Below, in pieces: positions 7,901 to 26,130 of a stretch of 64,000 nucleotides of DNA; the stretch's first letter is position 1; each line of letters opens with the position of its first letter. This DNA comes from an uncultured Acetobacteraceae bacterium. GTDB taxonomy: Bacteria; Pseudomonadota; Alphaproteobacteria; Acetobacterales; Acetobacteraceae. A program made the translations under genes and the position numbers. The notes under the pieces are model-generated. The model was given only the letters and a program-made list of their open reading frames with translations, searched no databases and was not told the origin of the DNA. The stretch covers positions 3,204-67,203 of the forward strand of contig CAXTCN010000012.1 in the NCBI GenBank assembly GCA_964242575.1, written 5' to 3'.

Positions 7901-9124
7901 TTAGCTGAACGTGGTGCCGCTGATGCTGCTGACGCCCAGGAAGTCGATCCGGGTGCCGTCCGTCAGCGTGACGCTGGTGCTGGCCACGCCTGCGACCACG
8001 GTGCGGGTGCCGGTGCCGCTCGGGCCGAGCGCGCCGGCCACCTCGTTGGCGCTGTAGCCGCCCAGGCTCACGCGGTCCTCGGGGGCGAAGTCCACGATCT
8101 GCACGGCGCCGCTGGCGCGGCCCTGGGCGATGGCGAACACGTCCCGGCTCGCGCCGCCGCTCACGGTGGAGTTCGCGCCGGCGAAGATGGTGTCGCTGCC
8201 CGCGCCGCCGTAGATGCGCGCGGCGCCCGCCACCGAGGCCACGAAGATGTTGTTGGCGGACGAGTTCGCGCCCGACAGCGTTTCGTTGCCCGCGCCGGCG
8301 AACAGCACGGTCTGGTTGGCGCCGTTGGCGAACAACTGGTCGCCGCTGGCGGCGCCGAACAGGGTGGAGCTTGCGCCGGTGCCGCCGACGATGGAGCTGT
8401 TGCCGCCGGTGCCGGCCGCGAACAGGCCGCCGCCGGAGCCTGCGAACACCGTGCTGCTGCCGGTGCCGCCCAGCACGGTGGCGCGGCCCGCGCCGCCCAC
8501 GAACAAGAAGTTGGAGGCGTTCTCGGCCACCAGCACGGTGCCGTTGCCGCCGAAGATGGTGTCGGTGCCGCCGGGCTGGGACGAGCCTGCGACGGTGTCG
8601 GACGTACCGGACAACGTGACCACGTCCGATCCGGTGCCGAGGAAGATGAGGTTCGCGCCGCCGCCGGCCGCGACGGTGTTGTTGCCGGACTGCGCGACGA
8701 TGGTGTCGTTGCCGGACCCGGTGGTGATGCTGAACCCCGCGCCGCCGATGGTCGGGATGCCAATGAGATTGTTGCCGTCGCCGGTGAGGATGATGCCGGA
8801 CCCGCCGCCGGCATTGAACGTGAGGTTGCCGCTGTCGGCCAGCACGCGCTGGCTCAATCCGCCCGCGCCCACGACCGTGCTGGCGCCGCCGGTGTTCACC
8901 ACGACGCTGGTGACGGCCGTTTGCAGGACGGTGGTGGTGTTCGGCGCCGTGGTCTGCACAAGGCCCGCGCCGGTCGGCGGGTTGGTGTTGCCGCCGACCG
9001 TCAGGGTCCCGGCGGTTATGGCCTGGTTGATGGCGGTCTGGATTGCGGTCGAAAGGCCGTTGCGGTCGTTCGACCCGGCGTTCACCGCAATCGTATTTCC
9101 ATTTGAGCCTGTAATGGTCGCCAT
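7901..9124 (-). CDS. Secreted Gly/Asn/Thr-rich repeat protein with RTX-like calcium-binding motifs
   Basis: No Cys and no signal peptide. Nonapeptide-like strings GGAGSDTIFAG, GTGSDVVTL, GSGNDTIVA, GDGNNLIG. Composition is typical of type I secretion substrates. Confidence 0.6.
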   Translation of the reverse strand: MATITGSNGNTIAVNAGSNDRNGLSTAIQTAINQAITAGTLTVGGNTNPPTGAGLVQTTAPNTTTVLQTAVTSVVVNTGGASTVVGAGGLSQRVLADSGNLTFNAGGGSGIILTGDGNNLIGIPTIGGAGFSITTGSGNDTIVAQSGNNTVAAGGGANLIFLGTGSDVVTLSGTSDTVAGSSQPGGTDTIFGGNGTVLVAENASNFLFVGGAGRATVLGGTGSSTVFAGSGGGLFAAGTGGNSSIVGGTGASSTLFGAASGDQLFANGANQTVLFAGAGNETLSGANSSANNIFVASVAGAARIYGGAGSDTIFAGANSTVSGGASRDVFAIAQGRASGAVQIVDFAPEDRVSLGGYSANEVAGALGPSGTGTRTVVAGVASTSVTLTDGTRIDFLGVSSISGTTFS

Positions 9125-9345: not shown

Positions 9346-10161
9346 TCACTGCTGTCGCAGGGCGGCGGCGACCGCGTCCTTGCCCCATTGCCGTTCTAGC
9401 CGCCGCACCGTGAAATGCGCGCGGGCCAGGGCGTCATACTGCGCCATGAACGCCGCGTTAATCGCGGCGCCGCACACCGCGCCCGCCACCGGCACCGCCT
9501 GCGCCGCCAGCTTCTGGCCGAGCTGCACGCCGTAGCGCGCCGCCACCTCGGACATCAGCCGCACCAACGAGCCGCCTTGCAGCAGCAGGCGGGTCGGGAA
9601 GTAGCCCGCCTCGTTGCTGGCGCCGTCCGGGCCGGGCAGGCCGGTGCGCAGCGCGAACACCTCTAGGCAGGCGCGGCGGCTGGTCTCGGTCGTGAGGTCC
9701 TCGCCCTCCTCCTGCGCGATGCGGGCGATGCGGCGCATGATCGCCAAGGTTGTGACCGCCGCGTCCGGCGCGAATCCAAGCAGCCCGGCCGCGCCGCCCG
9801 CCGCGCCGGACATCGCCACCCCAAAGCCGGCCCGGCGTCCGCTGGTGCGCGGCGGCGCGGCGCCGGCCGGGGCGGGCAGACCCAGCACCGCGATGTCGAA
9901 CGCGCGGGCCAGCGCGGTTTCGGCCACGCCCTGCAACGACGCGCTCAGGCCGGGCAACGCCAGCAACGTCCCGGCGCCCCAGCCGCCCAGCATTCCCAGC
10001 GCCATCCGCCCCGCGCCGCCGAGCGCGCTTCCCAGTATGTCCGCGAGCCGCGACGCGAGGCCCGGTCCCTGTTGCAGGCGCGCGTAGGCCGCCCGCAGCT
10101 CCGCACGGGCGGCGTCGGGCATAGCGGCGTCGGGCATGGTGGGTTGGACAGTGAGCGACAT
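9346..10161 (-). CDS. EcsC-family protein
   Basis: From ATG 10161: ...TTLAIMRRIARIAQEEGEDL...CLEVFAL... and C-terminal AVPVAGAVCGAAINAAFMAQYDALARAHFTVRRLERQWG resemble the EcsC family. The upstream 57 codons of the track ORF look non-coding. Confidence 0.55.
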   Translation of the reverse strand: MSLTVQPTMPDAAMPDAARAELRAAYARLQQGPGLASRLADILGSALGGAGRMALGMLGGWGAGTLLALPGLSASLQGVAETALARAFDIAVLGLPAPAGAAPPRTSGRRAGFGVAMSGAAGGAAGLLGFAPDAAVTTLAIMRRIARIAQEEGEDLTTETSRRACLEVFALRTGLPGPDGASNEAGYFPTRLLLQGGSLVRLMSEVAARYGVQLGQKLAAQAVPVAGAVCGAAINAAFMAQYDALARAHFTVRRLERQWGKDAVAAALRQQ

Positions 10162-10286
10162 GGCGGCCTCATGCAGTGGGAGGGAATTTGAACGCGGCAG
10201 AGTAAGCCTGGTTAGGAATTGTGAAACGGGTTGACCCTGGCCCGTTAGGAAAACTAGCTTCCAATTGGAACATTTAGAGAACGTAA

Positions 10287-10487
10287 ATGGCACAGAACGC
10301 GCCCTCGCCGATTTCGCCTGTCGAGGCTCCACGCCCGCCGCGCCGGCCGTTGTATGTAGTGCGCGGCCGGCCCGGGCGGGAGGACCGCGGGCCGTTGCCG
10401 TCGGGCCACGCGCTGTCCTGGGACGCCATCACCGCCGGCACCGTGCTGGACCAGGCGCAATACCCCTACCCCGTGTTCCCGCGTTGA
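10287..10487 (+). CDS. Hypothetical small protein, first gene of the replication-type module
   Basis: 66-aa ORF. Its TGA overlaps an in-frame TTG of the next ORF (TTGA coupling). Confidence 0.35.
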   Translation: MAQNAPSPISPVEAPRPPRRPLYVVRGRPGREDRGPLPSGHALSWDAITAGTVLDQAQYPYPVFPR

Positions 10488-10936
10488 CCGTCCAGGACCG
10501 CGAAGACGGCCAGCGCATCGGCTGGCATCCGCTGGACCCGCCGGGGCCGCACCGCGCGGCGTCGTTGCTGGGGCAACTGGTGGCGTCCGGCATGATGCCG
10601 CGGGACTGGGCGTTGCAGGCGTTGCTGGGCGCGGCCGAGCGGTTGCGCCCGCCGCACGCCAGCGCCACCGGGCTGCGGATGCGGCTGGCGCACCGGTTGG
10701 ACGACGCCGTGCGGGACCACGAACGCCTGCGCGCCCGCGCCACGACCGACGTGCGGCGCGCGGTGCTGGCGCCGATCCTGGCCCGGCGGCCCAAGGCAGA
10801 GCTGCTGGCGCTGGCCGCCGGCGCTGACCCGGATGAGGCGTTGCGCCCGCGCGAGCGTCTGGCGTTGATCGAAACCGAAGTGGCCTGGGCGCTGCGCACC
10901 GGCGCGTTGCGGACGGGCGTGCCGTGTGCCGGATAG
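10484..10936 (+). CDS. Hypothetical protein
   Basis: C-terminal 150 codons of track ORF 10265..10936, starting at TTG 10484. Overlaps the next gene by 11 nt. Confidence 0.4.
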   Translation: MTVQDREDGQRIGWHPLDPPGPHRAASLLGQLVASGMMPRDWALQALLGAAERLRPPHASATGLRMRLAHRLDDAVRDHERLRARATTDVRRAVLAPILARRPKAELLALAAGADPDEALRPRERLALIETEVAWALRTGALRTGVPCAG

Positions 10937-12167
10937 CGCGTGGAACCTGTATGACGGCCCTGCCTCGCCCGAGTTGCTGGCATGGCCGGCGTCGTTGCCG
11001 GAGGCGGAGGGCATTCCACCGCGCGAGTGGCTGCTGGGCACCCGGCTGGTGCGCCGCTTCGTGAGCCTGCTGGTGGCGCCCGGCGGCGTCGGCAAGTCTG
11101 CGTTGGCGCTGGCGACCGCGGTCAGCCTGGCGTCCGGGCGCAACATCCTGGACGAGCACGTGCATCACAGCGTGCCGGCCTGGGTTTTGAACCTGGAGGA
11201 CCCGGCCGATGAGCTGAACCGCCGGGTCGCGGCGCTGATGCGGCTGCACGGCATCGGGCCGGAGGCGCTGCACGACCGGCTGTTCCTGCACCACGGGCGG
11301 GACCGCCGCCTGGTGATGGCGGCCGGCGTCGATGGCGCGGTGACCTACCCGGACCAGGACGGCGTGCTGGCGCAGATGCGGCACCGGGGCATTGGCCTGG
11401 TGGTGGTGGACCCGTTCGTGAAGTCGCACACCTTGGACGAGAACAGCAACGCGCACATGGACGCTGCCGCGACGGCGTGGGCCGAGGTGGCGGAGGCCGC
11501 GGGGGCGGCGGTGCTGCTGGTGCACCACGTCCGCAAGGCCGGGACCAGCGGGCCGGAAACCTCGGTGGACGCGGCGCGCGGGGCCAAGGCGCTGTCGGAC
11601 GCCGCCCGCAGCGCCACGGTGCTGTCGCCCATGACGACGGACGAGGCCGAGCAGCTTGGCGTGGGCGCGGACGAGCGTTGGCGGCATGTGTGGCTGGACG
11701 ACGCCAAGGCGAACATGGCGCCGCGCGGGGGCAAGGCGCGCTGGTTCCGCATGGAAACGGTGACGCTCGGCAACGGCACGGCCCTGTATCCGCACGGGGA
11801 CCAGGTGGCGGCGATCCAGCCGTGGCGGCCCAGCAGCCCGTGGGCGGCGCACTCGACGGCGCTGTTGAACGCGGTGCTGGACCGGCTGGCGGCCGGGCCG
11901 TCGCCCGGGGTGCTGTACGCGCCGACGCGCCGCGGCCGGGTCGCGCCGGGGTGGGGCGGGCGTCCTCTGGTGCAGATGCTGGGCGTGGCGGAGGCGCAGG
12001 CGGCGGTGATGCTGGAGACGTGGCTGCGCAGCGGCGTGCTCACGGTGGTCAGCTACCGCGACCCGGTGCAGCGGCGCGAGCGCAACGGCCTCAATGTGGT
12101 GGACGCGCTGCGTCCGACGCGGGTGGCGGATTTTACCAATGAAGGGATGGACGATGAGCGGAATTGA
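10926..12167 (+). CDS. RepA-like RecA-fold ATPase (AAA_25 type) of plasmids/phages
   Basis: Walker A LVAPGGVGKSALAL, Walker B GLVVVDPFVKSH, LLVHHVRKAG sensor strand. This architecture is typical of RepA/primase-associated helicases. Confidence 0.75.
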   Translation: MPDSAWNLYDGPASPELLAWPASLPEAEGIPPREWLLGTRLVRRFVSLLVAPGGVGKSALALATAVSLASGRNILDEHVHHSVPAWVLNLEDPADELNRRVAALMRLHGIGPEALHDRLFLHHGRDRRLVMAAGVDGAVTYPDQDGVLAQMRHRGIGLVVVDPFVKSHTLDENSNAHMDAAATAWAEVAEAAGAAVLLVHHVRKAGTSGPETSVDAARGAKALSDAARSATVLSPMTTDEAEQLGVGADERWRHVWLDDAKANMAPRGGKARWFRMETVTLGNGTALYPHGDQVAAIQPWRPSSPWAAHSTALLNAVLDRLAAGPSPGVLYAPTRRGRVAPGWGGRPLVQMLGVAEAQAAVMLETWLRSGVLTVVSYRDPVQRRERNGLNVVDALRPTRVADFTNEGMDDERN

Positions 12168-12397
12168 TGCGGGAATTGATGCAGGCGGGACGCCACGAAT
12201 TGATGCGGCAATTGATGCGGGAGCGGGGCCTGTGGCCTCGGGCGCATCAATTCCCCCCAGTTCCACTGGGGGAATTGATGCGCCCGATGCCGCACGGCCG
12301 GGGAAAACAGCGGGAATTGATGCGCGTTCTGATGCGCGAATTGATGCGGGGGCGCGCCCTCGAGTTGATGCGGCTTTTGATGCGGCTTTTGATGCGC
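12161..12397. repeat. Iteron array: 12 copies of an AATTGATGCG-type motif, candidate origin
   Basis: Direct copies start at 12161, 12173, 12197, 12209, 12271, 12313, 12327, 12338, 12362, 12374 and 12386, with an inverted copy at 12243. Spacing is mostly 12 or 24 bp. Confidence 0.75.
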
Positions 12398-12438
12398 GGG
12401 CGCGCAACCCGGACGGCCAGCGCGCCGATGCGGCGTTC

Positions 12439-12843
12439 GTGCTGGCCCGGCTGCACGAGGCCGGGGCCACGTTGCTGTCGCTGCCGCACACCGGGCACGG
12501 CACGCAACTGCGCCAGGGCGGGTTGGAGTGGGTGCGGGACGCGGCCACGGGCTATGGCGCGGCACCCGCCCGGCTGCGTCCGCCGGTGCCGAGCGCCGCC
12601 GCGATCGACCGGATGGACGTGGCGCTGGCGTGGATTTCGCTCATTCCCGAGGACAAGCGCGTGCTGCGCCGGGTGGTGGGCGCGCGCAGCCTGATTAGCC
12701 CGATGACCGGGCGGCACGTTTACAGTTGGCGGCGGATCGGCGCGGCGGTGGGGGCGGACCACAAGGCGATGCAGCGGTGGCACGCGCAGGGGGTGGACCT
12801 TATCGTGGCGGCGTTGAACGCGCCGCGTACGAGTACGCGGTGA
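12439..12843 (+). CDS. HTH-like protein accompanying the RepA-like ATPase (DUF6362-like)
   Basis: The conserved-looking part is ...LLSLPHTGHGTQLRQGGLEW...ISLIPEDKRVLRRVVGARSL...SWRRIGAAVGADHKAMQRWHAQGVDLIVAAL. The track ORF starts at 12094 and an ATG lies at 12154, but that N-terminus is the translated iteron array. In-frame GTG at 12439 is proposed as the start. Confidence 0.5.
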   Translation: MLARLHEAGATLLSLPHTGHGTQLRQGGLEWVRDAATGYGAAPARLRPPVPSAAAIDRMDVALAWISLIPEDKRVLRRVVGARSLISPMTGRHVYSWRRIGAAVGADHKAMQRWHAQGVDLIVAALNAPRTSTR

Positions 12844-13774
12844 CGGGCAGCCGGGGTTCCGGCGACAGTGGCGCGCGGAGGCCGCGGAGCATGGCGGCGG
12901 CGATGCGCTTGAGCTGCGGCGTGCCGGCGGCGCGGGCGTGCTCGGCGCGCAGCACGCGGCCCATGGTGCGGACCGCCGCCACCATTCCGAAGTGCTTGCG
13001 CAGCAGTTGCGCGTAGCTGGCGTAGTACAGCCGGGTGACGGCCGGGCTGTACTCGCCGCCGGACGACGCGCCGCCCTCGTGCAGCAGCGTGGGGTCCGGC
13101 AGGTAATGGATGGGGATGCCGGCGGCATTGAGGCGCATGCAGAGGTCCACGTCCTCCCAATAGACGAAAAAGCTTTCGTCCAGCAGGCCGACCTGTTCCA
13201 GCGCCTCCAACGCTAAGCCGAGGCAGCAGCCGCTGGCGAAGTCCACTTGGCGCGGGGTGGGCGGGTCCTCGGGCCGGTACTCCTCGTGCTTGTTGGCGAA
13301 GGTCCAGCCGTAGTCCAGGTGGCCGCCGGCGTACCAGGAACGCGCCGGGTCATCGGTCCGCATGACGCGCGGCGCGACGACGGGCCACTCGTGCTCCATC
13401 CAGGTGTCCAGCAGGTCTTGCAGGAAGTTGGGCGGCGGCACGGTGTCGGGGTTCAGCAGCAGGAACCTTTGCGCGTCCTGTTCCGCGGCGGCGCGCAAGC
13501 CCTGGTTCACCGCGCGGGCGAAGCCGACGTTCGTGTCGTTGGCGATGATGGTGACGCGCGGGTCCGCGAGGGCGCGCAGGGTGTTCATGGACGTGTCGGC
13601 GGAGGCGTTGTCGATGGCGATGAGCCGCCAGTCCCCCATGCGCTGCGCCACCAGGTGCAGCCACAGCGTGGTGAAGGCCTCGTTGCTGTTGTACAGCACG
13701 GTGACGATGTGGATGAGGGGCGGGTTCATGGCGGAGGGTTGTCTAGCCGCAACGGAGCCGGCTGGGTAGGTCAT
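12800..13774 (-). CDS. Family 2 glycosyltransferase
   Basis: IVTVLYNS...LIAIDNASADTS...NDTNVGFARAVNQGL is the GT-A fold with a DxD-type motif. Start is either 13774 or 13729. Confidence 0.8.
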   Translation of the reverse strand: MTYPAGSVAARQPSAMNPPLIHIVTVLYNSNEAFTTLWLHLVAQRMGDWRLIAIDNASADTSMNTLRALADPRVTIIANDTNVGFARAVNQGLRAAAEQDAQRFLLLNPDTVPPPNFLQDLLDTWMEHEWPVVAPRVMRTDDPARSWYAGGHLDYGWTFANKHEEYRPEDPPTPRQVDFASGCCLGLALEALEQVGLLDESFFVYWEDVDLCMRLNAAGIPIHYLPDPTLLHEGGASSGGEYSPAVTRLYYASYAQLLRKHFGMVAAVRTMGRVLRAEHARAAGTPQLKRIAAAMLRGLRAPLSPEPRLPVTAYSYAARSTPPR

Positions 13775-13875
13775 AGGAATGGCGCCGCAACGACATATCG
13801 GTTAACCCACATTAACGTCGTTGTTTGTAGGGATAGTAATTTGCCTATGCCTGGCCAGGCTAGCCGACTGGTGCC

Positions 13876-15132
13876 GTGCAAGTCATTGGATGGCATTGCA
13901 CCATGAATACCCTTGTCGTCATGTACCTCCACATACCCTTGAAAGCAGACGATCATAACGGGTTGGTGCGGCGGTGCCGCGCGTTCCTGCACGCGCTGCA
14001 CGAGGTCAGCCACCAAATCACGCTGCTTCAGATAGTTCCCGCCGATCAGATCGACGCGGCCGGACCGCTTGACCGGCTCAGCCAGGCGCAGTCCGAGTTT
14101 TGGGGCGTGCCGTTGCGCATAGCCCTCGTGCCGCGCCGCCCCCGGACGGAGACGGCCTGGCGTCACTACGGAGCAGGCATCTTGAACGCCGAAGCGCAGC
14201 CGACCCTGTTCCCATACGGCGGCGAGGCGGTGGCGAACGCAGTGGCCGCTCACCTGGACCAACAGCCGGACCTGGTGTTCGCCCAGGGCCTGCCGGCGAT
14301 GCTGCCGATCCTGCGCAGCCGCCGCCGTCCGCGGCGCCTGGTGTTCGATATGATCGATGTCGAGCACAAAGTCATGTTCCGGCAGGCGTTCAGCGCCCCG
14401 CGCTATTTGGGCAAGCCGGCCCGGTTGTTGCAGGTTCCGGCCTTGATGGCGTTGGAGCGCCGGTCCGTGGCGGCGTCCCACTTGACGTTTGTTTGCTCCG
14501 ATACGGACCGCGCATACTTGCGGCGGACAGGCTTCGGCGACACAATTCGGGTCGTGCCGAACGCGTTGGCATTGCCCGCTGACCCGCCCGGCGTCGTCAA
14601 GGACGGCACGGTGCTGTTCCTGGGCGACGCGGGCTACCCGCCCAACCATTATGCCGCGGAACGGATGGCGCGCCGCATTTGGCCCCGGGTGCACGCGGCC
14701 ATGCCCGACGCGCGGCTGCTGATTGCGGGCCGGGGCTCGGACCTCCTGTTGTCCGCCGCCGAGGGCCTGCCGGGGGTGGAGCACTTGGGCTTCGTGCCGG
14801 ACCTCGATGCGCTGTATGCCCGGTCCCGCGTGGTGTGCGCGCCCATCATGACCGGCGGCGGCACGCGGTTGAAGCTGGTGGAGGCCGCGTCCTACGCGCG
14901 GCCCATGGTGTCCACGCGGATCGGCGCGGAAGGGCTGGACTTCGTGGACGGGCAACAGGCGCTGCTGCGCGACGACGACGCGGGGTTCGCCGACGCGTGC
15001 GTGGCGCTGCTGCGGGACGACGCGCTGTGCCGGCGGCTGGGCGAGGCGGCGCGGGCGGTGATGGCGGCGGAGTACGACGTGCGCCGGGTGGAGGCGCGCA
15101 TCGTGGAGATGATCGGTAGTGTCTCAGTTTGA
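13876..15132 (+). CDS. Group 1 (GT4-type) glycosyltransferase
   Basis: C-terminal ...RVVCAPIMTGGGTRLKLVEAASYARPMVSTRIGAEGL is the GT-B E-x7-E region. Alternative ATG at 13903. Confidence 0.75.
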   Translation: MQVIGWHCTMNTLVVMYLHIPLKADDHNGLVRRCRAFLHALHEVSHQITLLQIVPADQIDAAGPLDRLSQAQSEFWGVPLRIALVPRRPRTETAWRHYGAGILNAEAQPTLFPYGGEAVANAVAAHLDQQPDLVFAQGLPAMLPILRSRRRPRRLVFDMIDVEHKVMFRQAFSAPRYLGKPARLLQVPALMALERRSVAASHLTFVCSDTDRAYLRRTGFGDTIRVVPNALALPADPPGVVKDGTVLFLGDAGYPPNHYAAERMARRIWPRVHAAMPDARLLIAGRGSDLLLSAAEGLPGVEHLGFVPDLDALYARSRVVCAPIMTGGGTRLKLVEAASYARPMVSTRIGAEGLDFVDGQQALLRDDDAGFADACVALLRDDALCRRLGEAARAVMAAEYDVRRVEARIVEMIGSVSV

Positions 15133-15335
15133 GATCCCTGATACTCACCATCTGCACCAGAAGCCATTAACAATCCAGCTTTGAAGCATGTTAATCTTGT
15201 AGCTTACAATGTGCGAAAGGGTAAAATAATGCGCCCCTCGTAGAATACGTGCGCCTTCTATAACGTATGGATGGATCTTGTGATGAGTTGTGTATGGTTA
15301 ACGAGGCATTCCAATACGTACATTGATGCAAGTAT

Positions 15336-15938
15336 TTAATCCGCAAGAGCTATAAATTTTTCCCTCCGTTCAGGCCAAGTCGGGCTGAGGACAATGGAAG
15401 CATAGGGTTCCGGTATAGCTAACAAACGAGCAACTTCGGACGGCGTCATATGCTTCTCAACGAGGCGTGCAATTGCTTCTTCAGGACACAATACGGCCAA
15501 AGCCTGGTAAGTAGCAACTTCCTCGAAAAGAGCCATAGGACTCATTTCTGTGTCAACAAACCCATTGAGAGACATATTATTTAGAAGTTCTTCGCCCTTC
15601 TCGCGTGAATTTACTTTTAGCTCTTCTGGATCAAGTGCATGTATAAGCTCTTTTACACAGATAAGTCTTTGCCAATCTAGAGCGCTATTTCTGTTATATC
15701 TGACAACACAGTGAACAATACTTGCCCCATACGTAAGGGTATTCTCATAGATAATAATGTTCCCACGTAGATGCCCTACTGGGCCGTCGAATGGGGATAT
15801 GATGATACGATCATAGTATCCCCATTCGACTATTTGATTCCGGATTTCAGCGACTTCGACTGGAACTTTTGTAAAACGCGAAAACAGATTAACTAGTCTT
15901 CGGACAGTTATGCACTCGCCTTTGGTAAGAAAAGCCCT
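15336..15938 (-). CDS. 200-codon open frame, ImmA/IrrE-like with KExxH in place of HExxH; no canonical start in the first 121 codons
   Basis: AT-rich DNA, yet open from the TAG at 15941-15939 down to the stop at 15336. The first ATG/GTG/TTG is at 15575 (track ORF). WQRLICVKELIHAL aligns to the rqrFtlaHElgH metallopeptidase motif. Confidence 0.4.
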   Translation of the reverse strand, partial: RAFLTKGECITVRRLVNLFSRFTKVPVEVAEIRNQIVEWGYYDRIIISPFDGPVGHLRGNIIIYENTLTYGASIVHCVVRYNRNSALDWQRLICVKELIHALDPEELKVNSREKGEELLNNMSLNGFVDTEMSPMALFEEVATYQALAVLCPEEAIARLVEKHMTPSEVARLLAIPEPYASIVLSPTWPERREKFIALAD

Positions 15939-15955
15939 CTATTTGGAGGGCTTTT
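15930..15955 (-). terminator. Rho-independent terminator after the 81-aa gene
   Basis: AAAAGCCCTC-tatttg-GAGGGCTTTT. On the minus strand the GC stem is followed by UUUUCUU. Confidence 0.7.
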
Positions 15956-15958
15956 GAA

Positions 15959-16204
15959 TTACCGCAAAGTTAATACGTCTATCTTGGGTGAGTTGCTGAT
16001 TGGAGGAGCATCCAGCAAATTACCTTCATTTTCCCAAGTATGCGCAATTACCTCTTTGGCTGCTAGGCACATCTGATCCACAGTTAAATCTTTCGCGTTT
16101 CCACGAAAAAATTTAACGTTTAGAACCTTCTTATCATCTCTGTCGAACAGAAACGCGAGTAGCCTTTCCCGTTCAGTCATCAATCTCGTCCTTTCCACTC
16201 CCAC
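15959..16204 (-). CDS. Hypothetical small protein in the AT-rich islet
   Basis: 81-aa ORF (alternative ATG at 16180, MTERERLLAFLF...). No recognised motif. Confidence 0.45.
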   Translation of the reverse strand: MGVERTRLMTERERLLAFLFDRDDKKVLNVKFFRGNAKDLTVDQMCLAAKEVIAHTWENEGNLLDAPPISNSPKIDVLTLR

Positions 16205-16473
16205 CGCACCGCGATGGCTTGCTTAGCATCTCAACACCCCACTATTCCCTTGAGGCGCACGCAAGATATATAACACGTCCGGCGCATACCATCGTATTTC
16301 ATCATCGATAAATTAATTGGCTGCGTTGTGATAAAAATTCTGTGTTTCGCGCCAGCATGAGCGTCAGTGGCTTAGGATAATCAGCCTCAAGTTTAGATTC
16401 CATCAAACAATCGAGGGGTTGGCGGCGTAGGGTCATGCTGCGTGCACCCTACGCGCCAAACCTCACCAAACCC

Positions 16474-17541
16474 TTAACGCCGGGCGGGCACGGACGCCTC
16501 GTATCGCGTTAACCGGTTCTTTAGGGTCCGGGCCGCATAGTCCTCGGCGGCGGCGGCTTCGGGGATGGTGTCGCCCAGGCCGAAGAAGTCATGGGTGGTG
16601 CCAGGGAACATGCGGAAGCTGACGGGGATGCGCGCGGCCTGCAAGGTGGCGGCGAGGGTTTCGCCCTGGCTGCGCAGCGGGTCGATCTCGGCCACGATGA
16701 TGGTGGTGGGCGGCAAGCCATCGAGGTCCTGGCGGGACAGCAGGTCGAGCCTTGGGTCCCTAAGCTCGCGGCCGCTGTTCACGTACTCGTCCTGCGCCCA
16801 GTTGACGGTGCGGCGGGTGAGCGGGCGGCTGTTGCCGGACTCCGTCATGCTGGGGCTGGACAGGGAGGTGCCGACCAGGGGCGTGATGAGCAACAGGTGG
16901 TCCGGCACGGCCACGCCGCGGTCGCGGGCCAGGAGCGCGGTGCTGAGGGCGAGGTTCGCGCCGGGTCCGGTGCCCGCGAGCACGACGCGGGTGGGGTCGG
17001 CGCCCCAGGACCGGGCGGTGGCGCGCGCCCACTGGTATGCCGCGAAGGCGTCGTCGTGCGCGGCGGGGAAGGGGGACTCGGGCGCCTTGCGGGTGGCGAC
17101 GGTGACGACGGCCCAGCCGGTGCGGGCGCTGAGTTGGCGGGCGGTTTCGTCGGCGTGGTCCAGCCCGCCGGTGACCCAGGTGCCGCCGGGGAACAGGACG
17201 ATAAGCGGCGTGTCCCGCGCGAGAGCGGGGCGGTACAGGCGGGCGGACAGCGGGCCTTCGGCGCCGCTGGCGGTGAGCGGGGTGACCTGCGGCACCTCCG
17301 TCGTTGGCGCCGGCAGGCCGTGCACGTTGGGGATGGCGCGCGCGGCGTCGGCCAGGATGGGGACCTGTCGTGCCCGGTCGGCGCTGAGGCTCGCGAGGGG
17401 CTGGGGGCGGAGGACCTGGTACTCGGACAGCACCTCGGTCATGGCGGGGCTGGGCTGGTACGGCGTGCTGCCCTGGGGCGGCGTCGTGCCGCAGGCGGCG
17501 AGGAGGGCCATGAGGGCGAGGGGCGAGAGGCGCGGCGGCAT
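16474..17541 (-). CDS. Lipoprotein, alpha/beta-hydrolase (HSL-type) homolog lacking the catalytic Ser
   Basis: Lipobox LALMALLAACG. Family alignment to gene 5195..6160, but HGGG is replaced by FPGGTW and GDSAG by GTGPG, while the DPL and H(D)F positions remain. Confidence 0.7.
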   Translation of the reverse strand: MPPRLSPLALMALLAACGTTPPQGSTPYQPSPAMTEVLSEYQVLRPQPLASLSADRARQVPILADAARAIPNVHGLPAPTTEVPQVTPLTASGAEGPLSARLYRPALARDTPLIVLFPGGTWVTGGLDHADETARQLSARTGWAVVTVATRKAPESPFPAAHDDAFAAYQWARATARSWGADPTRVVLAGTGPGANLALSTALLARDRGVAVPDHLLLITPLVGTSLSSPSMTESGNSRPLTRRTVNWAQDEYVNSGRELRDPRLDLLSRQDLDGLPPTTIIVAEIDPLRSQGETLAATLQAARIPVSFRMFPGTTHDFFGLGDTIPEAAAAEDYAARTLKNRLTRYEASVPARR

Positions 17542-17660
17542 GGGGGAACCCTGGATCAGTGCCGGTGCAAGGTGCCGTGGACGCGGCGTACCGACAAGCA
17601 CTTTGCTGCGTGGGGGCTAAATAGCTTGCGTGCGAGATACTGGTGCCCTAGCGATCCGCC

Positions 17661-18077
17661 ATGGACCGGGTTGAGGATTGCATTTCGTTCCTGGTGAACA
17701 AGGCGGCGCAGTCGGTGTCGCGGCGGGCGCGCGACGGCTTGGCCGCGCATGGGGTGACGCCGACGCAGTTCGCGCTGCTGAAGGTGCTGTGGGAGCGGGA
17801 CGGGCAGTGCGGCGCGGACGTGGGCGCGCGGCTCATGGTGGACAGCGCGACCATGACCGGGGTGCTGGACCGGCTGGAGGCGGCCGGGCTGGTGGAGCGG
17901 CAGGCGTGCGCGGGGGATCGGCGGGTGCAGCGGCTGCACGTGACCGGGCGCGGCCATGCGGTGCGGCCGGAGCTGGAGGCCGCGATGGAGCAGGTGAACG
18001 AGGACGTGGCGCGGGAGCTGGGCGGGGCCGCCCCGGCGGTGTGGTCGGCACTGCGCCGGCTGGGCGAAGCGCGGTGA
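17661..18077 (+). CDS. MarR-family transcriptional regulator
   Basis: ...HGVTPTQFALLKVLWERDG...GARLMVDSATMTGVLDRLEAAGLVERQ...DRRVQRLHVT is the winged HTH of MarR. Confidence 0.85.
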   Translation: MDRVEDCISFLVNKAAQSVSRRARDGLAAHGVTPTQFALLKVLWERDGQCGADVGARLMVDSATMTGVLDRLEAAGLVERQACAGDRRVQRLHVTGRGHAVRPELEAAMEQVNEDVARELGGAAPAVWSALRRLGEAR

Positions 18078-18781
18078 GGCGTTGGATATGGGCGTTGTTG
18101 GCGTTGGCCGGGCCGGCACAGGCGCAGGGGTTTTATGAGGGCCGGGCCATCGTGACCGGCATGGACCAGCGCAGCCGCCCGGACGGGTTGCGCGCCGGGT
18201 TGGCGCAGGTGCTGGCGCGCGTGGCGGGGGACCCGGCGTTGCTCGATGACCCGCGCGTGGCGGCGCTGGACCCTGGGCCGACGCTGGTGGGTTTTGCCTA
18301 TTTGGACCGCATGTCCGACTTGCCGCGGCAGGACGAACAGGGGTCGCGCGACCGTCCTTATGACTTGGTGGCGCAGTTCGACCCGGCCGCCATCGCGGCG
18401 GCGCTGCGCGGGTTGGGCCGGACGGTGTGGCCCGAGGCGGCACGGCCGGTGCTGACGGTTGCCGTTTCCGTGACGCCGCGGGTGGGCGACGCTTTCACCT
18501 TGGCGCCGGACACCGACGTGGACGAACGGCACCGAGCGGCGCTGCTGGTGGCGGGCGCGCGGTTCGGCATGGCGCTGCGGATTGATGCGGCACCGGCGCT
18601 GGACGCGCGGGCGCTGCGGGGTGCGCTGGCGTGGGAGGACGGCGGCTGGCGGGCGTCGTGGAGCATTTTGGCTTCGGGCCGCACCCAGGAATGGACGATC
18701 GCCGGCGTGGGGTTCGACGCGGCGTATCGCAACGGCGTCGGCGGCGCGGCGCGGGCGCTTTCGGCTGAGTGGGCGAAATAA
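18074..18781 (+). CDS. DUF2066-like secreted protein
   Basis: GTG 18074 overlaps the marR stop. Signal peptide WIWALLALAGPAQAQG followed by FYEGRAIVTG..., typical of DUF2066. Confidence 0.55.
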   Translation: MRRWIWALLALAGPAQAQGFYEGRAIVTGMDQRSRPDGLRAGLAQVLARVAGDPALLDDPRVAALDPGPTLVGFAYLDRMSDLPRQDEQGSRDRPYDLVAQFDPAAIAAALRGLGRTVWPEAARPVLTVAVSVTPRVGDAFTLAPDTDVDERHRAALLVAGARFGMALRIDAAPALDARALRGALAWEDGGWRASWSILASGRTQEWTIAGVGFDAAYRNGVGGAARALSAEWAK

Positions 18782-18792
18782 GGGGCATCGGC

Positions 18793-20085
18793 ATGGCACG
18801 CATTCATCCGGCTTGGCGCGTGGCGGCGGTCACGTTCGTGGTGCTGCTGGTGGCGGCCGGCATCCGGTCCGCGCCCGGGGTGCTGATCGTGCCCTTGGAA
18901 GGCGAGTTCGGCTGGTCGCGCGCCACGACGGGTTTCGCGGTGGCGGTGAACATCGTGCTGTATGGGCTGGCCGGGCCGTTCGCGGCGGCCATCATCGAGC
19001 GGTTCGGCCTGCGGCGCACCGTCGGGACCGCGCTCGCTATCATGGCGCTGGGCGTCGGCCTCACGCCGTTCATGACGCAGCCCTGGCATTTGGTGGCGCT
19101 GTGGGGCGTCGTGGTGGGGGGTGCCTCTGGCGTGACAGCGCTGGTGCTGGCGACCACGGTGGCGAGCCGCTGGTTCTCGGCCCGGCGCGGCCTGGTGGTG
19201 GGCCTGCTGACCGCCAGCACGGCGACGGGGCAGCTCGTGTTCCTGCCGCTGCTGGCGCACCTGGCCAGCACGGTGGGGTGGCGGGCCATCAGCCTGTTGC
19301 TGGCGTGCGTGGCGGCGGCGTTGATCTTGCCGGTGCTGGGGTTCATGCGGGACCGGCCGGTGGATTTGGGCATCCCGCCGTATGGCGGCACGGCGGTGGT
19401 GCCGCGCGTCCGGCCCACCGTGAACCCGGCCGTGCGCGCCATGCTGGCGTTGCGCGACGGGCTGCGGTCCGGGGATTTCTGGCTGCTGGGCGGCACGTTC
19501 TTCGTGTGCGGCGCCAGCACCAACGGGCTGATCGGCACGCATTTGATCCCGGCGTGCATCGACAACGGCATCCCCGAGGTGATGGCGGCCGGGCTGCTGG
19601 CGGCGATGGGGGTGTTCGACATGGTGGGCACCACGCTGTCCGGCTGGCTGTCGGACCGGTATGACAACCGGGTTTTATTGGCGTGGTACTATGGGTTCCG
19701 CGGATTGAGCCTGCTGTTCCTGCCGTTCGCCTTGGCGGGCGGGCTGTTCGGGCCGGCCGGTCCGACGCCGTTGCTGTTGGGCATCTTTGCGGTGTTCTAC
19801 GGGCTGGACTGGATTGCGACGGTGCCGCCCACGGTGCGGCTGGCGGCGCGGTGTTTCGGCGAGGAGAACGCTCCGGTTATGTTCGGCTGGATCGCGTGCA
19901 TGCACCAGTTGGGCGCGGGCATGGCGGCGTGGGGCGCCGGGCTGATCCGCGTGGAGGCCGGGACCTACGTGCCGGCGTTCCTGGCGGCGGGGGCGCTTTG
20001 TTTGGTGGCGAGCGTCATGGTGGCGTTCATTGGCGGGGACCGGCGTGCGGTGGCGGGGGCGCCGGTTCCTGGGGCGGCGGCTTAG
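18793..20085 (+). CDS. MFS transporter
   Basis: About 12 hydrophobic segments and an ...IIERFGLRRT... loop 2-3 motif. ATG at 18793. Confidence 0.8.
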   Translation: MARIHPAWRVAAVTFVVLLVAAGIRSAPGVLIVPLEGEFGWSRATTGFAVAVNIVLYGLAGPFAAAIIERFGLRRTVGTALAIMALGVGLTPFMTQPWHLVALWGVVVGGASGVTALVLATTVASRWFSARRGLVVGLLTASTATGQLVFLPLLAHLASTVGWRAISLLLACVAAALILPVLGFMRDRPVDLGIPPYGGTAVVPRVRPTVNPAVRAMLALRDGLRSGDFWLLGGTFFVCGASTNGLIGTHLIPACIDNGIPEVMAAGLLAAMGVFDMVGTTLSGWLSDRYDNRVLLAWYYGFRGLSLLFLPFALAGGLFGPAGPTPLLLGIFAVFYGLDWIATVPPTVRLAARCFGEENAPVMFGWIACMHQLGAGMAAWGAGLIRVEAGTYVPAFLAAGALCLVASVMVAFIGGDRRAVAGAPVPGAAA

Positions 20086-20240
20086 CGCACCAGCCAGGCC
20101 GGGACGCTGGACAGCATAGGCTTGCCCAGGGTTCGGGCGATTGGGCTTGTGAGCGCCGGATACTTGCAACGAACGGCATTGCTGGTTGTGCGATGCTGGC
20201 GGGCACGCACTTCCGGGTGGGTGCGTGATGCGGATGATGC

Positions 20241-20264
20241 GCGTGAGCGTGAGCGTGAGCGTGA
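20241..20264. repeat. Hexanucleotide microsatellite (GCGTGA)x4
   Basis: Four perfect tandem copies, flanked by degenerate copies, about 100 bp upstream of the large ORF. Confidence 0.8.
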
Positions 20265-20365
20265 GGCGCAAGTGGGCGGACGGCCGTCATGCGATAGATG
20301 ATCCGGTGCCTGCACAATCATAAGTTGCTGTCGCAAAAGTTCGTCAGCAGCTTGACAATTCCGAG

Positions 20366-23300
20366 TTGTTTATGGTGCGATACCGCAATGAGGCCTATGG
20401 CGGGCCGCTCGCGTCGATAGCCGGCCGCGTCAGCGCTGGCAGCAGGGTTATGGTCATGGGAGCGATTGCCGAGTACGCCAAGGCTGCAGCTGCCGTTGCA
20501 AAGGATGCAGCCGCCGTTGCAGCCGTTGTCGCCAAGGATGCAGCAGCCGTTGCAGCCGTTGCTGTTGGGCTTTCAGTGCTGGCCTGGGTGATTGGCGTTG
20601 GCATTATTAGGTTGTGGCGCGGCAAGCGGGCTCCATTCGGTCTTGCGCCCTTTGTGGCTGCGCCTGAGTTGGATGCCAGCATCGGACCTATTGTCCGCAT
20701 GGCGCTCCTTATGGAGTTACGGCGGGCGTCCGCACTCTGGCATCAGCAGGTCCGTAAGCCACGGGATGGGAACGGGGGAAATGGCAGCGGGAACAAGGAA
20801 CTGCTCAGGATCGAGATAGCGACCCGGGGGCAAGTTCGCGCGATGCCGAGCTCAAGCTTGTCGCTCGTTTCCACTCCTTGGTCGAGCGGCACGGCCAGCG
20901 ACTACGAGAGCCTAAGGGGCAGATGGGACACATTGCCCGACGCTGCAGTCAGCCGCGTTTTGCCGCAATGGAGTGAGCCGAAGTCGTCTCTGCTTTCAAG
21001 CCATGTCTCGGCGCCCTCTTCCAAGTTCGAGAGCGACGCGATCGAGATTGGAAGCGCTGGCACGAAAATCGCCGTGCTGAAGTTGGCCAAAGCGCTGTGG
21101 AGGTGGAAACCGGACAAGTACGAACGCGAGGTTGAAGGATACATGGGGTGCCTCGACGGCCACCTGCGCGCGACCGCAGTGGTAAGGCCAAAAAGGTTCA
21201 TTGTTCGCACGCGTTCCCGGCTGGGGGAGCGCATCGGTCGCGCGTGCCGCTGGCTGGGAAGGCTGGGGGTTCGGGCGTGTCGTCGGCTGGGGGAGCGTGT
21301 CGTTCGCGCGTGCATCTGGCTGGGGGAGCGCATGGATCGCGCGTGCCGCGGGCTTGGAGAGCGCATGGATCGGGCGTGTTCCTGGTTCGAAGGGCCGGTG
21401 GTCCGGGCCTGCCGCTGGCTGGGGACGCGCATGAACTGGGCGTGCGTCTGGTTGGAGGGGCCGGTGGTCCGGGCCTGCCGCTGGCTGGGGGAGCGCATGG
21501 ATCGCGCGTGTTCCTGGTTGGAAGGGCCGGTGGTCCGGGCCTGTCGCTGGCTAGGGGAGCGCATGGACTGGGCGTGCATCTGGTTGGAGGGGCCGGTGCA
21601 TCGGGCCTGCCGCTGGCTCGCGGGGCACATCGTTCACGCGCCTCGCTGGCTGAAGGGGCGCCTAGTTCGTGCGCGTCGCTGGCTGGAGGGGCGCATAGTC
21701 CGCGTGCCTCGCTGGCTGGGTTTACTCAGGCCGCAGGGGGTTATGGGCCACCATGGCATCAAGGCCTGGGAGACGCGGGAACATGAGTGCGCGGCAAGGC
21801 TGGTGCATCCGGTGAGCGTCGCGGAACGAACGGGGGGACCGGGCGGGGCGGCGAGGGCGGCTGGACCCGATAATGCCGGGAAGGCCACGTCGGCCGACGT
21901 TGTTGAGAGGGCCGCCGAGCTTGGAGTCGAGCTGGCCTACAGGATACTGGCTGGCGGGACGGACGCTGGCTGGCAGGCGGACAAGCATTACGTCGCCGCC
22001 GTGGCGTGCTACAACCTTGGCGTAAGCAACGGCAAGAGCGAGCCACTGCGCCAAACTCTTGAACGCGTGAAGGAAATACGCAGGATCAGCCCAGGTTACG
22101 AACGCCTGCCGAACCTGATGATCGCAGTCTCCGACGAGCTGCTCAAGTTGCAGGACATCGAAGGCGCAGAGCAGGCGCTGCTTGCCGTGACGTCCGACTA
22201 CGACGCGCCCGGCAACACAGGTGCGGCAAGAACGCGGGTATGGGAGCGATCTGAGCGTGAGCGGATATACGAAAGCGAACGGATAGAGATTTTTTCGCGT
22301 CTAAGTTCGATTTACATCCGAAAAGGCAACCGCAAGGCAGCCAACTCAGCGCTGAAGCAATCCGAAGGTCTGGTGGAACGCAGTCCGAACAAAGCGGATT
22401 ATAATGATTACGTGAGGCAAGTAATAAGCCCAATTTCGGCTGCGCTCATGGCCTTGCCGAACGAAGACAGTGGTGAGACAGAAGATAACGACAGAATAAA
22501 AGCACAGAAAATTGTTGAGAGTTTGGTAACGGATATATACTCTGAAACTTCAAAGCCTATTTTCATCATACAGAAAAACAACGATAGTGAAATTAAACAA
22601 GGTCTGCGTGATATTGAAATTGCTGATCAGTTAGCAAAAATACACTTCAATGCAGATGCACTCGCAAGATACTTGAGTGCAGAGAGCACGCTTGGAAAGT
22701 TCGACCAGTTCAAAAATAATATGAGGTATATCCACTGGCGTCGTGGTGTTATGCATCAATTCACTTATCTTGAGGGTCGTCGCAAGGCCGAGGCTTCAGC
22801 CTTGGAATTTAGAAAGATTTGGAGGAAGTTGAGTGTGCATTTCGAACTGAAAGATAGCAGTGCAAAGAAAAAATTCGACGAGCTGTTTGAACAAGCGCCA
22901 AACTGGTTGCGTAACACAAAGGATTGGAGGAGAGAGTCCATACAAATAACGAAGATCGACGAGCACCGTAAAAAGGAACAACTAGCTCGCCTTAATGGAC
23001 AGCGAGATCGCCTTATTAGAAGCTTTGATGAATGTGCTCTAATTATAGCGCCAGCCAAAGAGGAAGAAAAAGACAAAGCAGAACAAGAAACAAAGACGTC
23101 GGAGTCTGTCGAGTGGTTAACTCAAGCAAGAACCTGCCTCGAAGCATTCTTGGAAGAATCTAATCAGGCCAAGACGGGTTTCAGTGATGCAGAGGACGCT
23201 TTCAGAGAAGCTACAATAGAAGCTGAAAGAATAGATCTGCTGCCTGGCCGGCGGCGCAAAAGAGTATTCGATTTATTTAACAAAAATAACAGAATCAGCG

Positions 23301-24496: not shown

Positions 24497-24583
24497 TATC
24501 AGAATGGCGCGCAACGCGCCGCCCTGTAGCGTGGGGCCGAGCACGGTGCGTAGGACATTGTCGCTGGGATTGTTGTTGGCCAT
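24446..24583 (-). CDS. Possible 45-aa membrane peptide
   Basis: Below the track cutoff. ATG at 24583 is preceded by GAAGGAA. MANNNPSDNVLRTVLGPTLQGGALRAILILAGFSFLGAVVAWLVR. Overlaps the 3' end of the large ORF by 51 nt. Confidence 0.3.
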   Translation of the reverse strand: MANNNPSDNVLRTVLGPTLQGGALRAILILAGFSFLGAVVAWLVR

Positions 24584-24744
24584 CGGGAATTCCTTCTGCG
24601 AACGCTGGATACAGGCCGCCGCGCCGGTTGTGAAGCGCAGCGCCCATGCAGCATTAACGCTTTAGCAAGCTATCCCTTGTAGGTTTAGCTGGACCAAGGT
24701 GATACACAAAGCCAGGTTCGGAACACGGGGTGCGACAACCGGCC

Positions 24745-25608
24745 ATGCGGATCGCGGCGCTGACGATGGTTTACAACGAGCCGCTGTGGGCCAAGGCGTG
24801 GGCGCGGCACTATGCGGCGGAGCTGGGGGCGGAGCATTGCGTGATGCTCGACCATGGCTCCGACGACGGCAGCACGGCGGCGGACCGGTTGGGCGCGCCG
24901 GTGCGGGTGGAGCGGCTGCACCGGTCGCCGTTGGATGAGGAGTGGCGGCTGCGGGTGGTGACGGCGCGGGTGCGGGGGTTGCTGCGCGAGTACGACGCGG
25001 TGTTCCACTCGGACGTGGACGAGCTGCTGGTCGCGGACCCGGCGCGCTATGCCGGCCTGCGCGCGTTGGCGGAGGGCACAACCGCGCCGGTGCTGACGGC
25101 GGTGGGGCTGGACGTGCAGCACATGCCGGACGAGGCGGCGCTGGACCCTGGGCGGCCGGTGGGCGCGCAGCGGAGCTGGGTGCGGTTTTCGGCGGCGATG
25201 TGCAAGCCGGCGCTGGTGCGCCATCCCGTCGCGTGGTGCCCGGGGTTCCACAGCAGCGACGCGGACTTGATTTTCGATGGGTTGTACCTGTTGCATATGC
25301 GCTATGCGGATTTGGACGCCGGGCTGCTGCGGCTGGCGCGGACGCGGGGCCAGGCGTTCGCCGGGCCGGAGGTGGCGGTGCACCAGCGGGTGACGGACAC
25401 GGAGTTTGCGGCGATGATGCGCGCCATCGCCGGCCTGCCGCGGGGGACAGGCGAGCTTGACCCGGCCGCTGCGCCGTTGGCGCCCTGGCTCGACCGGCTG
25501 CGGCAGTCGCGCGCGGCGCGGGAGACGGAGCGGTTCAAGCTGGACTTGGCGCTGTCCGGCAACGAGCTTTGGCAGGCTGGCCGGCTGTTGCGGGCGGTGC
25601 GCGGCTAG
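24745..25608 (+). CDS. Glycosyltransferase family 2-like protein
   Basis: MRIAALTMVYNEPLW...VMLDHGSDDGS...FHSDVDELL is a GT-A-type N-terminus with a DxD motif. Confidence 0.6.
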   Translation: MRIAALTMVYNEPLWAKAWARHYAAELGAEHCVMLDHGSDDGSTAADRLGAPVRVERLHRSPLDEEWRLRVVTARVRGLLREYDAVFHSDVDELLVADPARYAGLRALAEGTTAPVLTAVGLDVQHMPDEAALDPGRPVGAQRSWVRFSAAMCKPALVRHPVAWCPGFHSSDADLIFDGLYLLHMRYADLDAGLLRLARTRGQAFAGPEVAVHQRVTDTEFAAMMRAIAGLPRGTGELDPAAAPLAPWLDRLRQSRAARETERFKLDLALSGNELWQAGRLLRAVRG

Positions 25609-26123
25609 GCGCGAGGGCAATGCCGCACCATGTCATGACGCACGACGTATGGGGATTGGGGATGACGGAGCGCAATACTCGGGCACGGGCGGTGGCGATC
25701 GCGTTGCGGCGGCAACGGCCGGACCCCGCGCCGTGGTGGATGTGGGCGGTGCTGGCGGTGGGCTTGTCGTTGGCGGCGGCGTCGTCGGCACGGGCGCAGC
25801 CGGCGGTGCCGGGGACCGGGCCGGGCGCGCAGCCCATCCCGGAGGTGGTGCGGCCCGGCGCGCCGACCTTGCCGCCGGGCGCAGGCGGGGACACCGGCCT
25901 GACGCAGCCCAGGAGCGAGACGCCGTCCGTGCCGGGCACCGGCGATGCGGCGCGGCCGGTGCCGGACGCGGGCGTGGTCGCGCCGGTGCCGCGCGGGACG
26001 ATCACGCCGCCGGCGGGCGCGGGCGGCGACACTCCGGTGATCCGGCCGCCATCGGCCAGCACGATGCCGGTGATCCGGCCGCCGGGCAGCCCGGGCGGCA
26101 ATCCGGACGTGGTGCCGAAGTAG
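25569..26123 (+). CDS. Pro/Gly-rich secreted or anchored protein
   Basis: Hydrophobic anchor WWMWAVLAVGLSLAAASSARA, then repeated PPGAGGDTG / PVIRPP strings. Start is uncertain. Confidence 0.4.
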   Translation: MAGWPAVAGGARLGARAMPHHVMTHDVWGLGMTERNTRARAVAIALRRQRPDPAPWWMWAVLAVGLSLAAASSARAQPAVPGTGPGAQPIPEVVRPGAPTLPPGAGGDTGLTQPRSETPSVPGTGDAARPVPDAGVVAPVPRGTITPPAGAGGDTPVIRPPSASTMPVIRPPGSPGGNPDVVPK

Positions 26124-26130
26124 GGCCGCG

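Follow-up and report, generated by a model that had tools for sequence, protein, structure and literature searches.

The subject of this report is an array of short DNA repeats at positions 12161-12397 of a 64,000-nucleotide (nt) stretch, referred to here as 'the window', from an uncultured member of the Acetobacteraceae. Three forward-strand genes lie in sequence at this locus. The first, at 10484..10936 (+), is a small conserved open reading frame (ORF) of 150 amino acids (aa) in a rightward early operon, taken from the ORF list; it overlaps the start of the second gene by 11 nt. The second, at 10926..12167 (+), encodes a RepA-type replicative helicase (AAA_25, RecA fold) that ends in a predicted C-terminal winged helix (residues about 305-395), an assignment drawn from Pfam, PHROG, AlphaFold2 (AF2) and Foldseek. 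The third, at 12154..12843 (+), encodes a 229-aa protein of the DUF6362 family, made up of an N-terminal extension that runs to residue ~85-95 and a conserved core from residue ~96 (GTG at 12439) that finishes in a helix-turn-helix (HTH) resembling region 4 of sigma-70. The array begins at the very end of the helicase gene and occupies the extension. We consider it probable, from the comparisons of sequence described below, that this array serves a temperate phage, integrated in the Acetobacteraceae genome, as its origin of replication.

The repeat is (G/C)AATTGATGCG, and it is present 12 times, degenerate copies included: 11 copies are direct and one is inverted. Cores of the form TGATGC(G/A) begin on the forward strand at 12165, 12177, 12201, 12213, 12276, 12318, 12330, 12342, 12366, 12378 and 12390, and the inverted copy is at 12243. 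Taken in order, the spacings are 12, 24, 12, 30, 33, 42, 12, 12, 24, 12 and 12 nt, and all 11 direct copies share one reading frame. An earlier examination of the window, made from its letters only (the 'sequence-only reading'), had counted the same 11 direct copies and one inverted, mostly 12 or 24 base pairs (bp) apart; our own listing agrees with it to within 1 nt, and the measured spacings agree as well. It had also placed the opening of the array at the stop codon of a RepA/AAA_25-like ATPase, and the TGA of that gene (12165-12167) does lie within the first repeat. With at most one mismatch allowed, GAATTGATGCG occurs nine times in 12161-12372, against an expectation of 1.25 per 64 kb, and none of 100 shuffles reaches 12. 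Ten of the 14 exact copies of TTGATGCG in the window fall within 12164-12396. The exact 11-mer occurs 10 times in the whole genome: six times in the array, three times in a second cluster on another contig, and once alone. Phased direct repeats of one word beside a rep gene are the mark of an iteron-type origin, and 11 direct copies running from the RepA stop answer to that description.

The array divides into three parts. The left iteron set (12161..12219, +) comprises four direct copies, at 12161, 12173, 12197 and 12209, and the right set (12313..12397, +) comprises six, at 12314, 12326 (TTCTGATGCG), 12338, 12362, 12374 and 12386. Between them lies the central 48-nt palindrome (12238..12287, not assigned to a strand), which consists of the inverted iteron (12243-12253), a C-run, a 3-nt loop, a G-run and a direct iteron (12272-12282). 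The centre, between the two iteron copies, reads CCCCCCAGT-TCC-ACTGGGGG. The sequence-only reading saw a near-perfect palindrome in the copies at 12243 and 12271, and rightly: folded as single-stranded DNA, 12238-12287 has an energy of -28.5 kcal/mol (z = -10.6), and can form a cruciform or a hairpin. An intrinsic terminator or attenuator was considered at this position and rejected: the palindrome lacks a T-tract, a terminator scan is negative, and the palindrome is retained in non-coding contexts. Known RNA families were rejected too, the only matches being hairpin-like microRNAs far below the gathering score.

Related loci were collected from three sources. A scan of public genomes yielded eight, a set of 401 genomes from the same order contributed 29, and metagenome contigs supplied another four. 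The RepA module is present in 37 of the 401 genomes, in 23 genera. The layout recurs after genes for helicases of the RepA type in about 35 related loci, spread over at least 23 genera of the order, and also in an isolated phage. Where RepA is at least 53% identical, a DUF6362 gene is always found downstream, and in intact loci 188-444 bp separate the end of the RepA match from the DUF6362 core. In 25 of 25 such loci, the region between has the same order: two to five direct repeats; then an inverted repeat, C-run, 3-nt loop, G-run and direct repeat; then two to six further direct repeats. This arrangement is constant whether the downstream gene is DUF6362, ssb or none. Three copies that are decayed or laden with errors also keep the iteron/palindrome layout: L006, with several frameshifts in RepA and DUF6362; L008, with an in-frame TGA between the coupled ATG (described below) and the array; and L041, in which RepA is truncated.

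The repeat word itself varies by lineage (TTGATGCG, TTGACGCG, ATGGCGCG, ACGGCGCG, CAGTGGCGCA and others). Among loci with DUF6362, TTGATGCG is found in the window, L001 and L002; TTGACGCG in L003, L004 and L053; CATGACGCA in L052; CACGGCGCG in L051 and L054; CCGGCGCA in L029; and (A/C/T)ATGGCGC(G/A) in most of the others. More distant genes for RepA with a winged helix (RepA+WH; 33-48% identity) have no DUF6362 nearby, and most keep an array of the same kind, non-coding, immediately after the helicase gene. The word in these is CAGTGGCGCA in L032, L034 and L037, TGACGCA in L043, AACTGCGCA in L040 and GAACCGCGCA in L042. In L031, three copies of GAATGGCGCA at 12-bp spacing are followed by a palindrome, TGCGCCATTCCCCCCC-TTCAG-GGGGGGGAATGGCGCA, with a perfect 19-bp stem, then by three more copies, and then by ssb. 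In the isolated phage, Mae-Yong1326-1 (OP028995), the primase-helicase gene is followed by GACTGGCGCA repeats and by a palindrome whose arms are 27 nt long. Because the array persists in loci without DUF6362, we regard the helicase as its constant partner; and because the 12-bp spacing is kept in non-coding relatives, we regard that spacing as a property of the DNA site rather than of a reading frame. The replication region of this Microcystis phage (L044; OP028995.1 2040-10203) is GC-rich, with TGGCGC-type iterons, and encodes an alphaproteobacterial-type RepA+WH domain as part of a larger fusion protein, a composition unexpected in a phage of a low-GC cyanobacterium.

Comparison of related loci points to selection on the DNA. 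Divergence is 13% in the repeat cores and 31% elsewhere in the array (Fisher p = 7e-17), making the cores about 2.4-fold better conserved; the pairs compared are not mutually independent, and the core positions were taken from a single member of each. The proposal of the sequence-only reading, that this is a candidate replication origin, is thus strongly supported: the layout is conserved after the orthologous helicase, the repeat word co-varies with the helicase lineage, and the cores are conserved. The palindrome is conserved as a structure. In all 20 distinct palindromes, the seven base pairs beside the loop obey Watson-Crick pairing, and positions 1-6 display two to four pair types each, which is to say, compensatory changes. 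Over the 10 nt beside the loop, the paired fraction is 0.91 within a locus versus 0.61 between loci. In 17 of 25 loci, one strand carries GAA or GGA as the loop (in the window, in the region 12258-12268), and which strand this is varies. GNA triloops stabilize DNA hairpins. Since the symmetry reaches the 3-nt loop, these data argue for a palindrome that acts as an extruded hairpin or cruciform, and not merely as a binding site for a dimer.

RepA is present in a single copy in the genome. It matches Pfam AAA_25 (PF13481) at 1.4e-38 (132.9 bits; cutoff 27) and phrog_25693 over its full length; a search of NCBIfam gave no matches. The AF2 model has a pLDDT of 84.7, and Foldseek pairs it with RSF1010 RepA (1olo/1g8y/1nlf) with E-values of 8e-14 to 6e-13, TMt of 0.77-0.79 and 25-27% identity. 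By this structural likeness, the helicase domain is an RSF1010-RepA-type hexameric helicase of the RecA fold, superfamily 4 (SF4). The C-terminal domain of the model (residues ~311-391) has helices at 311-323, 346-352 and 356-369 and beta-strands at 372-378 and 385-391, the topology of a winged helix, and pLDDT is mostly 86-97 across residues 311-400. The product of the small upstream ORF (10484..10936) matches nothing in Pfam, PHROG or NCBIfam. Homologues of it, detected by tblastn, lie directly 5' of RepA in L003, L006 and L050, and ORFs of 125-140 aa occupy the same place in L051-L054.

Phage genes for packaging and head proteins follow on the same strand, identified by PHROG: the large terminase (29286-30740, +), the portal (34384-35766, +) and the major head protein (39377-40804, +). 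In one complete genome (G330), orthologous terminase, portal, capsid and tail genes are found 4.9 kb 3' of the orthologous RepA/array/DUF6362 module. From the matches to phage families, the structural genes downstream and the arrangement in G330, we therefore take RepA, array and DUF6362 together to be a prophage replication module.

DUF6362 matches its Pfam family at aa 126-215 (40.4 bits; cutoff 31) and also phrog_6836, and the family numbers 629 representatives at E<=1e-3. Most of the core is modeled with pLDDT above 90. Its last ~70 residues resemble sigma-70 region 4, and the top Foldseek matches are nearly all sigma region 4 (TMt 0.55-0.72), with weak E-values; to judge from the model, DUF6362 is probably a regulator, a protein with a sigma-region-4-like HTH. 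We found no literature on it in a limited search. No match to DUF6362 occurs in the phage database, and one occurs in the plasmid database, in a phage-like replicon of Rhodovastum. This replicon, the 55-kb 'plasmid' of Rhodovastum atsumiense (L009; NZ_OW485608.1), has a P22-type capsid, a terminase and a portal-like DUF4055 protein, and its short DUF6362 homologue is situated between a DnaB/DUF1376 replication module and HNH and terminase genes. Because this homologue adjoins a DnaB/DUF1376 module, DUF6362 is not tied to RepA+WH. At its 3' end, the DUF6362 gene of the window is overlapped by 44 nt by a gene for a GT2 protein (12800-13774, -).

The sequence-only reading took the frame across the array to be an ORF in appearance only, its N-terminus simply encoded by the repeats, and it started the gene proper at GTG 12439. 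Neither claim withstands comparison. A Shine-Dalgarno sequence (GAAGGGA) and an ATG at 12154 (together 12141..12156, +) overlap the last codons of RepA and form the start of DUF6362 translation. In 21 of 21 intact loci, such a start is found at the RepA stop, in most of them overlapping it as ATGA; the frame runs on into the DUF6362 core, no stop intervenes, and the distance from ATG to core ranges from 57 to 124 codons. Insertions and deletions in the array between relatives are multiples of three; in L020/L021, gaps of 13 nt and 5 nt add up to 18. No internal start is conserved. A start near the core with a Shine-Dalgarno-like sequence occurs in only two of 23 loci, and in five of the 23 there is no ATG, GTG or TTG within 20 codons of the core; GTG 12439 was accordingly rejected as the true start. 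Independent gene callers likewise place the start at the overlap. The in-frame start at the overlap, the lack of a conserved internal one and the agreement of the gene callers together imply that the array is translated. On these sequence comparisons, DUF6362 in the clade that bears it has no start of its own and is translated from the ATG coupled to the RepA stop; the putative origin sits inside a real, translated N-terminal extension whose 60-120 encoded residues are unconstrained, while the frame is kept open.

If the array is translated, might it be a coding repeat, in which IDA(G/A) is selected in the protein and the repetition of the DNA is a by-product? The frame is indeed open and conserved, the 11 direct copies all lie in it, and the change from GAT to GAC in L003 and L004 is synonymous. 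The data contradict this explanation nonetheless, and we judge it the least credible of those considered. Substitutions in the array are spread evenly over the three codon positions (12/13/18, 21/15/23 and 21/17/19 in three comparisons) in contrast to the third-position excess in the core (7/4/23, 10/8/36 and 2/1/15), a difference that therefore favors a DNA element. The conservation of the IDA repeat at the protein level, with synonymous variation beneath it, that would have spoken for coding constraint is not what is seen. The array diverges three to five times faster than the DUF6362 core, and the peptide is wholly different from one lineage to another (IDA, HGA, NGA or AMAQ), with two frames used within L007. 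Rare codons (ATT, GAT and TTT) are used across the array of the window, where GC3 is 0.35-0.55 (0.35 in the array against 0.91 in the core), rising to 0.9-0.95 from ~12394 on. The repeats occur inverted, and in non-coding DNA as well. AF2, finally, gives pLDDT of 45-52 for residues 1-70, and residues 1 to ~85 are predicted to be disordered. Codon positions, GC3, frame switching and non-coding copies together led us to discard a coding repeat.

Which protein reads the repeats is a separate matter, and here the wing of the RepA winged helix is suggestive. A tripeptide in the wing (residues about 380-386; window 12063-12083; equivalent positions in L001-L054) co-varies with the variable bases of the repeat: QRR accompanies TGA(C/T)GC, QRK accompanies TGGCGC, HRR accompanies CGGCGC, and HRK accompanies (C/T)GGCGC. 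In a tree built from the helicase domain only, QRR with TGAY appears in two separate, well-supported clades, and in the second of these, a repeat of its own goes with each of QRR, HRR and HRK. This co-variation suggests that the winged helix is the reader. Suppose instead that the array is still an origin, but that the reader is DUF6362 or the product of the small upstream ORF, RepA being the helicase only. The iterons then lie inside the gene of their reader, as those of the lambda origin lie inside O; DUF6362 has an HTH; and L028 and L029 differ from the rest in both HTH (GADHNAVRRWH) and repeats (CCGGCGCA). Set against this, the DUF6362 recognition helix, GADHKAVQRWH, is identical across loci with TTGATGCG, TTGACGCG and TGGCGCG repeats, and arrays of the same kind come after RepA+WH genes in loci where DUF6362 is not close by (L031-L043 and OP028995). 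Many members of the DUF6362 family, besides, have an N-terminus of only 7-30 residues, and that of the Rhodovastum replicon adjoins DnaB/DUF1376. Given the invariant HTH and the absence of DUF6362 from distant loci, we judge DUF6362 unlikely to be the reader, and consider a reader other than RepA, taken as a whole, improbable. Somewhat less probable again is a regulatory array, serving the early operon in autoregulation or DUF6362 or a repressor as a platform. An inverted pair with direct repeats is typical of operators also, isolated clusters of the repeat occur in promoter-like intergenic regions beside host genes, and many iteron replicons use the same sites in both roles. Yet the array lies where the helicase gene ends and inside the next ORF, away from the promoter of the operon (10.2 kb); a search of 9900-13100 gave no sigma-70-like promoter; 12 sites and a hairpin centre far exceed the needs of an operator; and even very distant loci keep the array beside the helicase gene. 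Packaging (pac/cos) sites and partition centromeres of the parC type can also be short phased repeat arrays, and the Rhodovastum DUF6362 gene directly precedes HNH and terminase genes. Here, however, 17 kb separates the array from the terminase gene in the window and 4.9 kb in G330, no ParA/ParM or small terminase gene is adjacent, and the helicase gene is the array's neighbour in every case, including loci where ssb comes next. A role in packaging or partition is very improbable.

Our preferred reading of these observations is that RepA is a self-loading initiator-helicase with its origin adjoining. The winged helix of RepA would bind the direct repeats, and RepA would assemble on either side of the centre. 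The palindrome would then extrude or melt to provide single strands for the loading of two hexamers, as proposed for SaPI Rep, and these hexamers would unwind outward with no need for a loader. Priming would be left to the host primase or to another primase, and ribosomes would read through the origin from the coupled ATG. Several observations weigh against this scheme. No AT-rich unwinding element is present in the array, where GC is 0.55-0.69; its enrichment in AT is only moderate (GC 0.55-0.60 vs 0.73), and stretches richer in AT than the array occur at 10.2 and 13.8 kb. No DnaA-box-like sites were found in 12100-12450. The RepA module contains no primase. The winged helix is assigned from AF2 topology only; searching sequences of the Protein Data Bank (PDB) with the C-terminal domain of RepA returned chance matches. 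The correlation between wing and repeat comprises few independent events, and L029, which has QRK with CCGGCGCA, is an exception to it. And clusters of the repeat, described below, exist far from any RepA gene, which a pure origin model does not explain.

A close parallel is with the Rep/ori replicons of the Staphylococcus aureus pathogenicity islands, or SaPIs (PICI). SaPI Rep is self-loading, has a C-terminal winged helix, and acts on 6-12 iterons directly 3' of rep, the halves of which flank a centre with opposed central copies (PMC9371898). The RepA array is likewise directly downstream of rep, and it too is split into two sets around central copies of opposed orientation; and one protein would serve as helicase and initiator by way of a C-terminal winged helix, with no separate loader, although on the RepA side this is a prediction from the model. 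There are differences as well. The core of RepA is a RecA fold (AAA_25, SF4) rather than the AAA+ fold (SF3-clade) of SaPI Rep; instead of an AT-rich tract, the centre holds a perfect palindrome that is rich in GC and has a loop of 3 nt; the origin, in the DUF6362 clade, is inside a translated ORF; the element is a full prophage rather than a satellite; and the RepA module has no primase. With its RecA/SF4 core and GC-rich centre, the RepA system would therefore work like a SaPI replicon without being a member of that family.

Other replicons share parts of the design. Among solved structures, the RepA of plasmid RSF1010 (IncQ) comes nearest in fold to the helicase domain, and IncQ origins (oriV) combine iterons with a large palindrome bearing ssiA and ssiB. 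RSF1010 RepA, however, has no winged helix and does not recognize the origin; binding of the 20-bp iterons falls to RepC, and priming at the ssi hairpins to RepB'. No homologue of RepC or RepB was found in the module in searches with Pfam, PHROG and NCBIfam. In phage lambda, the iterons of ori are embedded in O, a translated gene of the replication operon. The iteron-bearing gene of lambda encodes the binder and its peptide is functional, whereas here DUF6362 does not seem to track the iterons and the peptide is unconstrained. The alpha protein of P4 is a primase-helicase with a C-terminal winged-helix domain that binds the origin, where short repeats are both direct and inverted, and P4 has a second cluster of these repeats elsewhere, crr. 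Alpha differs from RepA in being an SF3 helicase fused to a primase. For self-loading helicases of the RecA fold with iterons, a limited search of the literature found no description.

The isolated clusters are reminiscent of crr, except that crr is part of the same 11-kb replicon. In the genome of the window, the cluster is on a different contig (C45:15200-15365; L011:6199-6370), at least 30 kb away, and comprises six direct and three inverted copies. It terminates in GCGCATCAATTCCCCC, which is the left arm of the window palindrome, and lies between a peptidase gene and a gene for a small secreted protein, with no phage genes nearby. The genomes of L002 and L003 (G002 and G003) have orthologous clusters of ~330 bp with a complete palindrome, 84% identical, in a syntenic intergenic region of the chromosome (L013:4940-5215 and L014:4540-4860). 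Searches by tblastn detected no remnants of RepA or DUF6362 beside isolated clusters. These clusters may be relics, titration sites or secondary origins, and the tblastn result speaks neither for nor decisively against their descent from a second module that has decayed. A bolder proposal, which we put forward as a long shot, is that they are working secondary origins or decoys for the RepA of the prophage, and that RepA+WH constitutes an undescribed class of self-loading initiator-helicases of the RecA fold, with a cruciform-centred origin and a code linking wing residues to bases. Were this so, the helicase of the induced phage would also fire or bind at the isolated clusters, amplifying or marking distant regions of the host; the clusters would be a device for run-off replication or hitchhiking, or would control copy number by titration.

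The array and RepA provide a concrete candidate for the origin and initiator of a widespread, unstudied group of Acetobacteraceae prophages. If the reading is correct, the principle that one protein finds, opens and unwinds an origin extends from AAA+/SF3 enzymes to a RecA-fold helicase of the RSF1010-RepA type. The locus would also be a natural case of DNA that serves at once as a protein-binding array and as an open frame, in which the frame is preserved while the peptide drifts. Gene callers report such origins as 'protein', and annotation thereby hides them. The lineage-specific repeat words and the wing tripeptide, taken together, would amount to a small specificity code, one that swaps could put to the test.

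Between the replication module and the terminase gene, the window contains ~16 kb of cargo (12800-29285), where the gap in G330 is 4.9 kb. This includes two glycosyltransferases, AT-rich islets, a homologue of a lipoprotein esterase, a MarR protein and a 1376-aa TPR protein. On the other side, 5' of the module and on the opposite strand, is a gene for an RTX-like protein rich in Gly, Thr and Ser (7901-9124, -). A gene of this kind is present in L003 (L003:648-1844, -; 48% identity) and a weaker relative in L007, and the gene may travel with the prophage.

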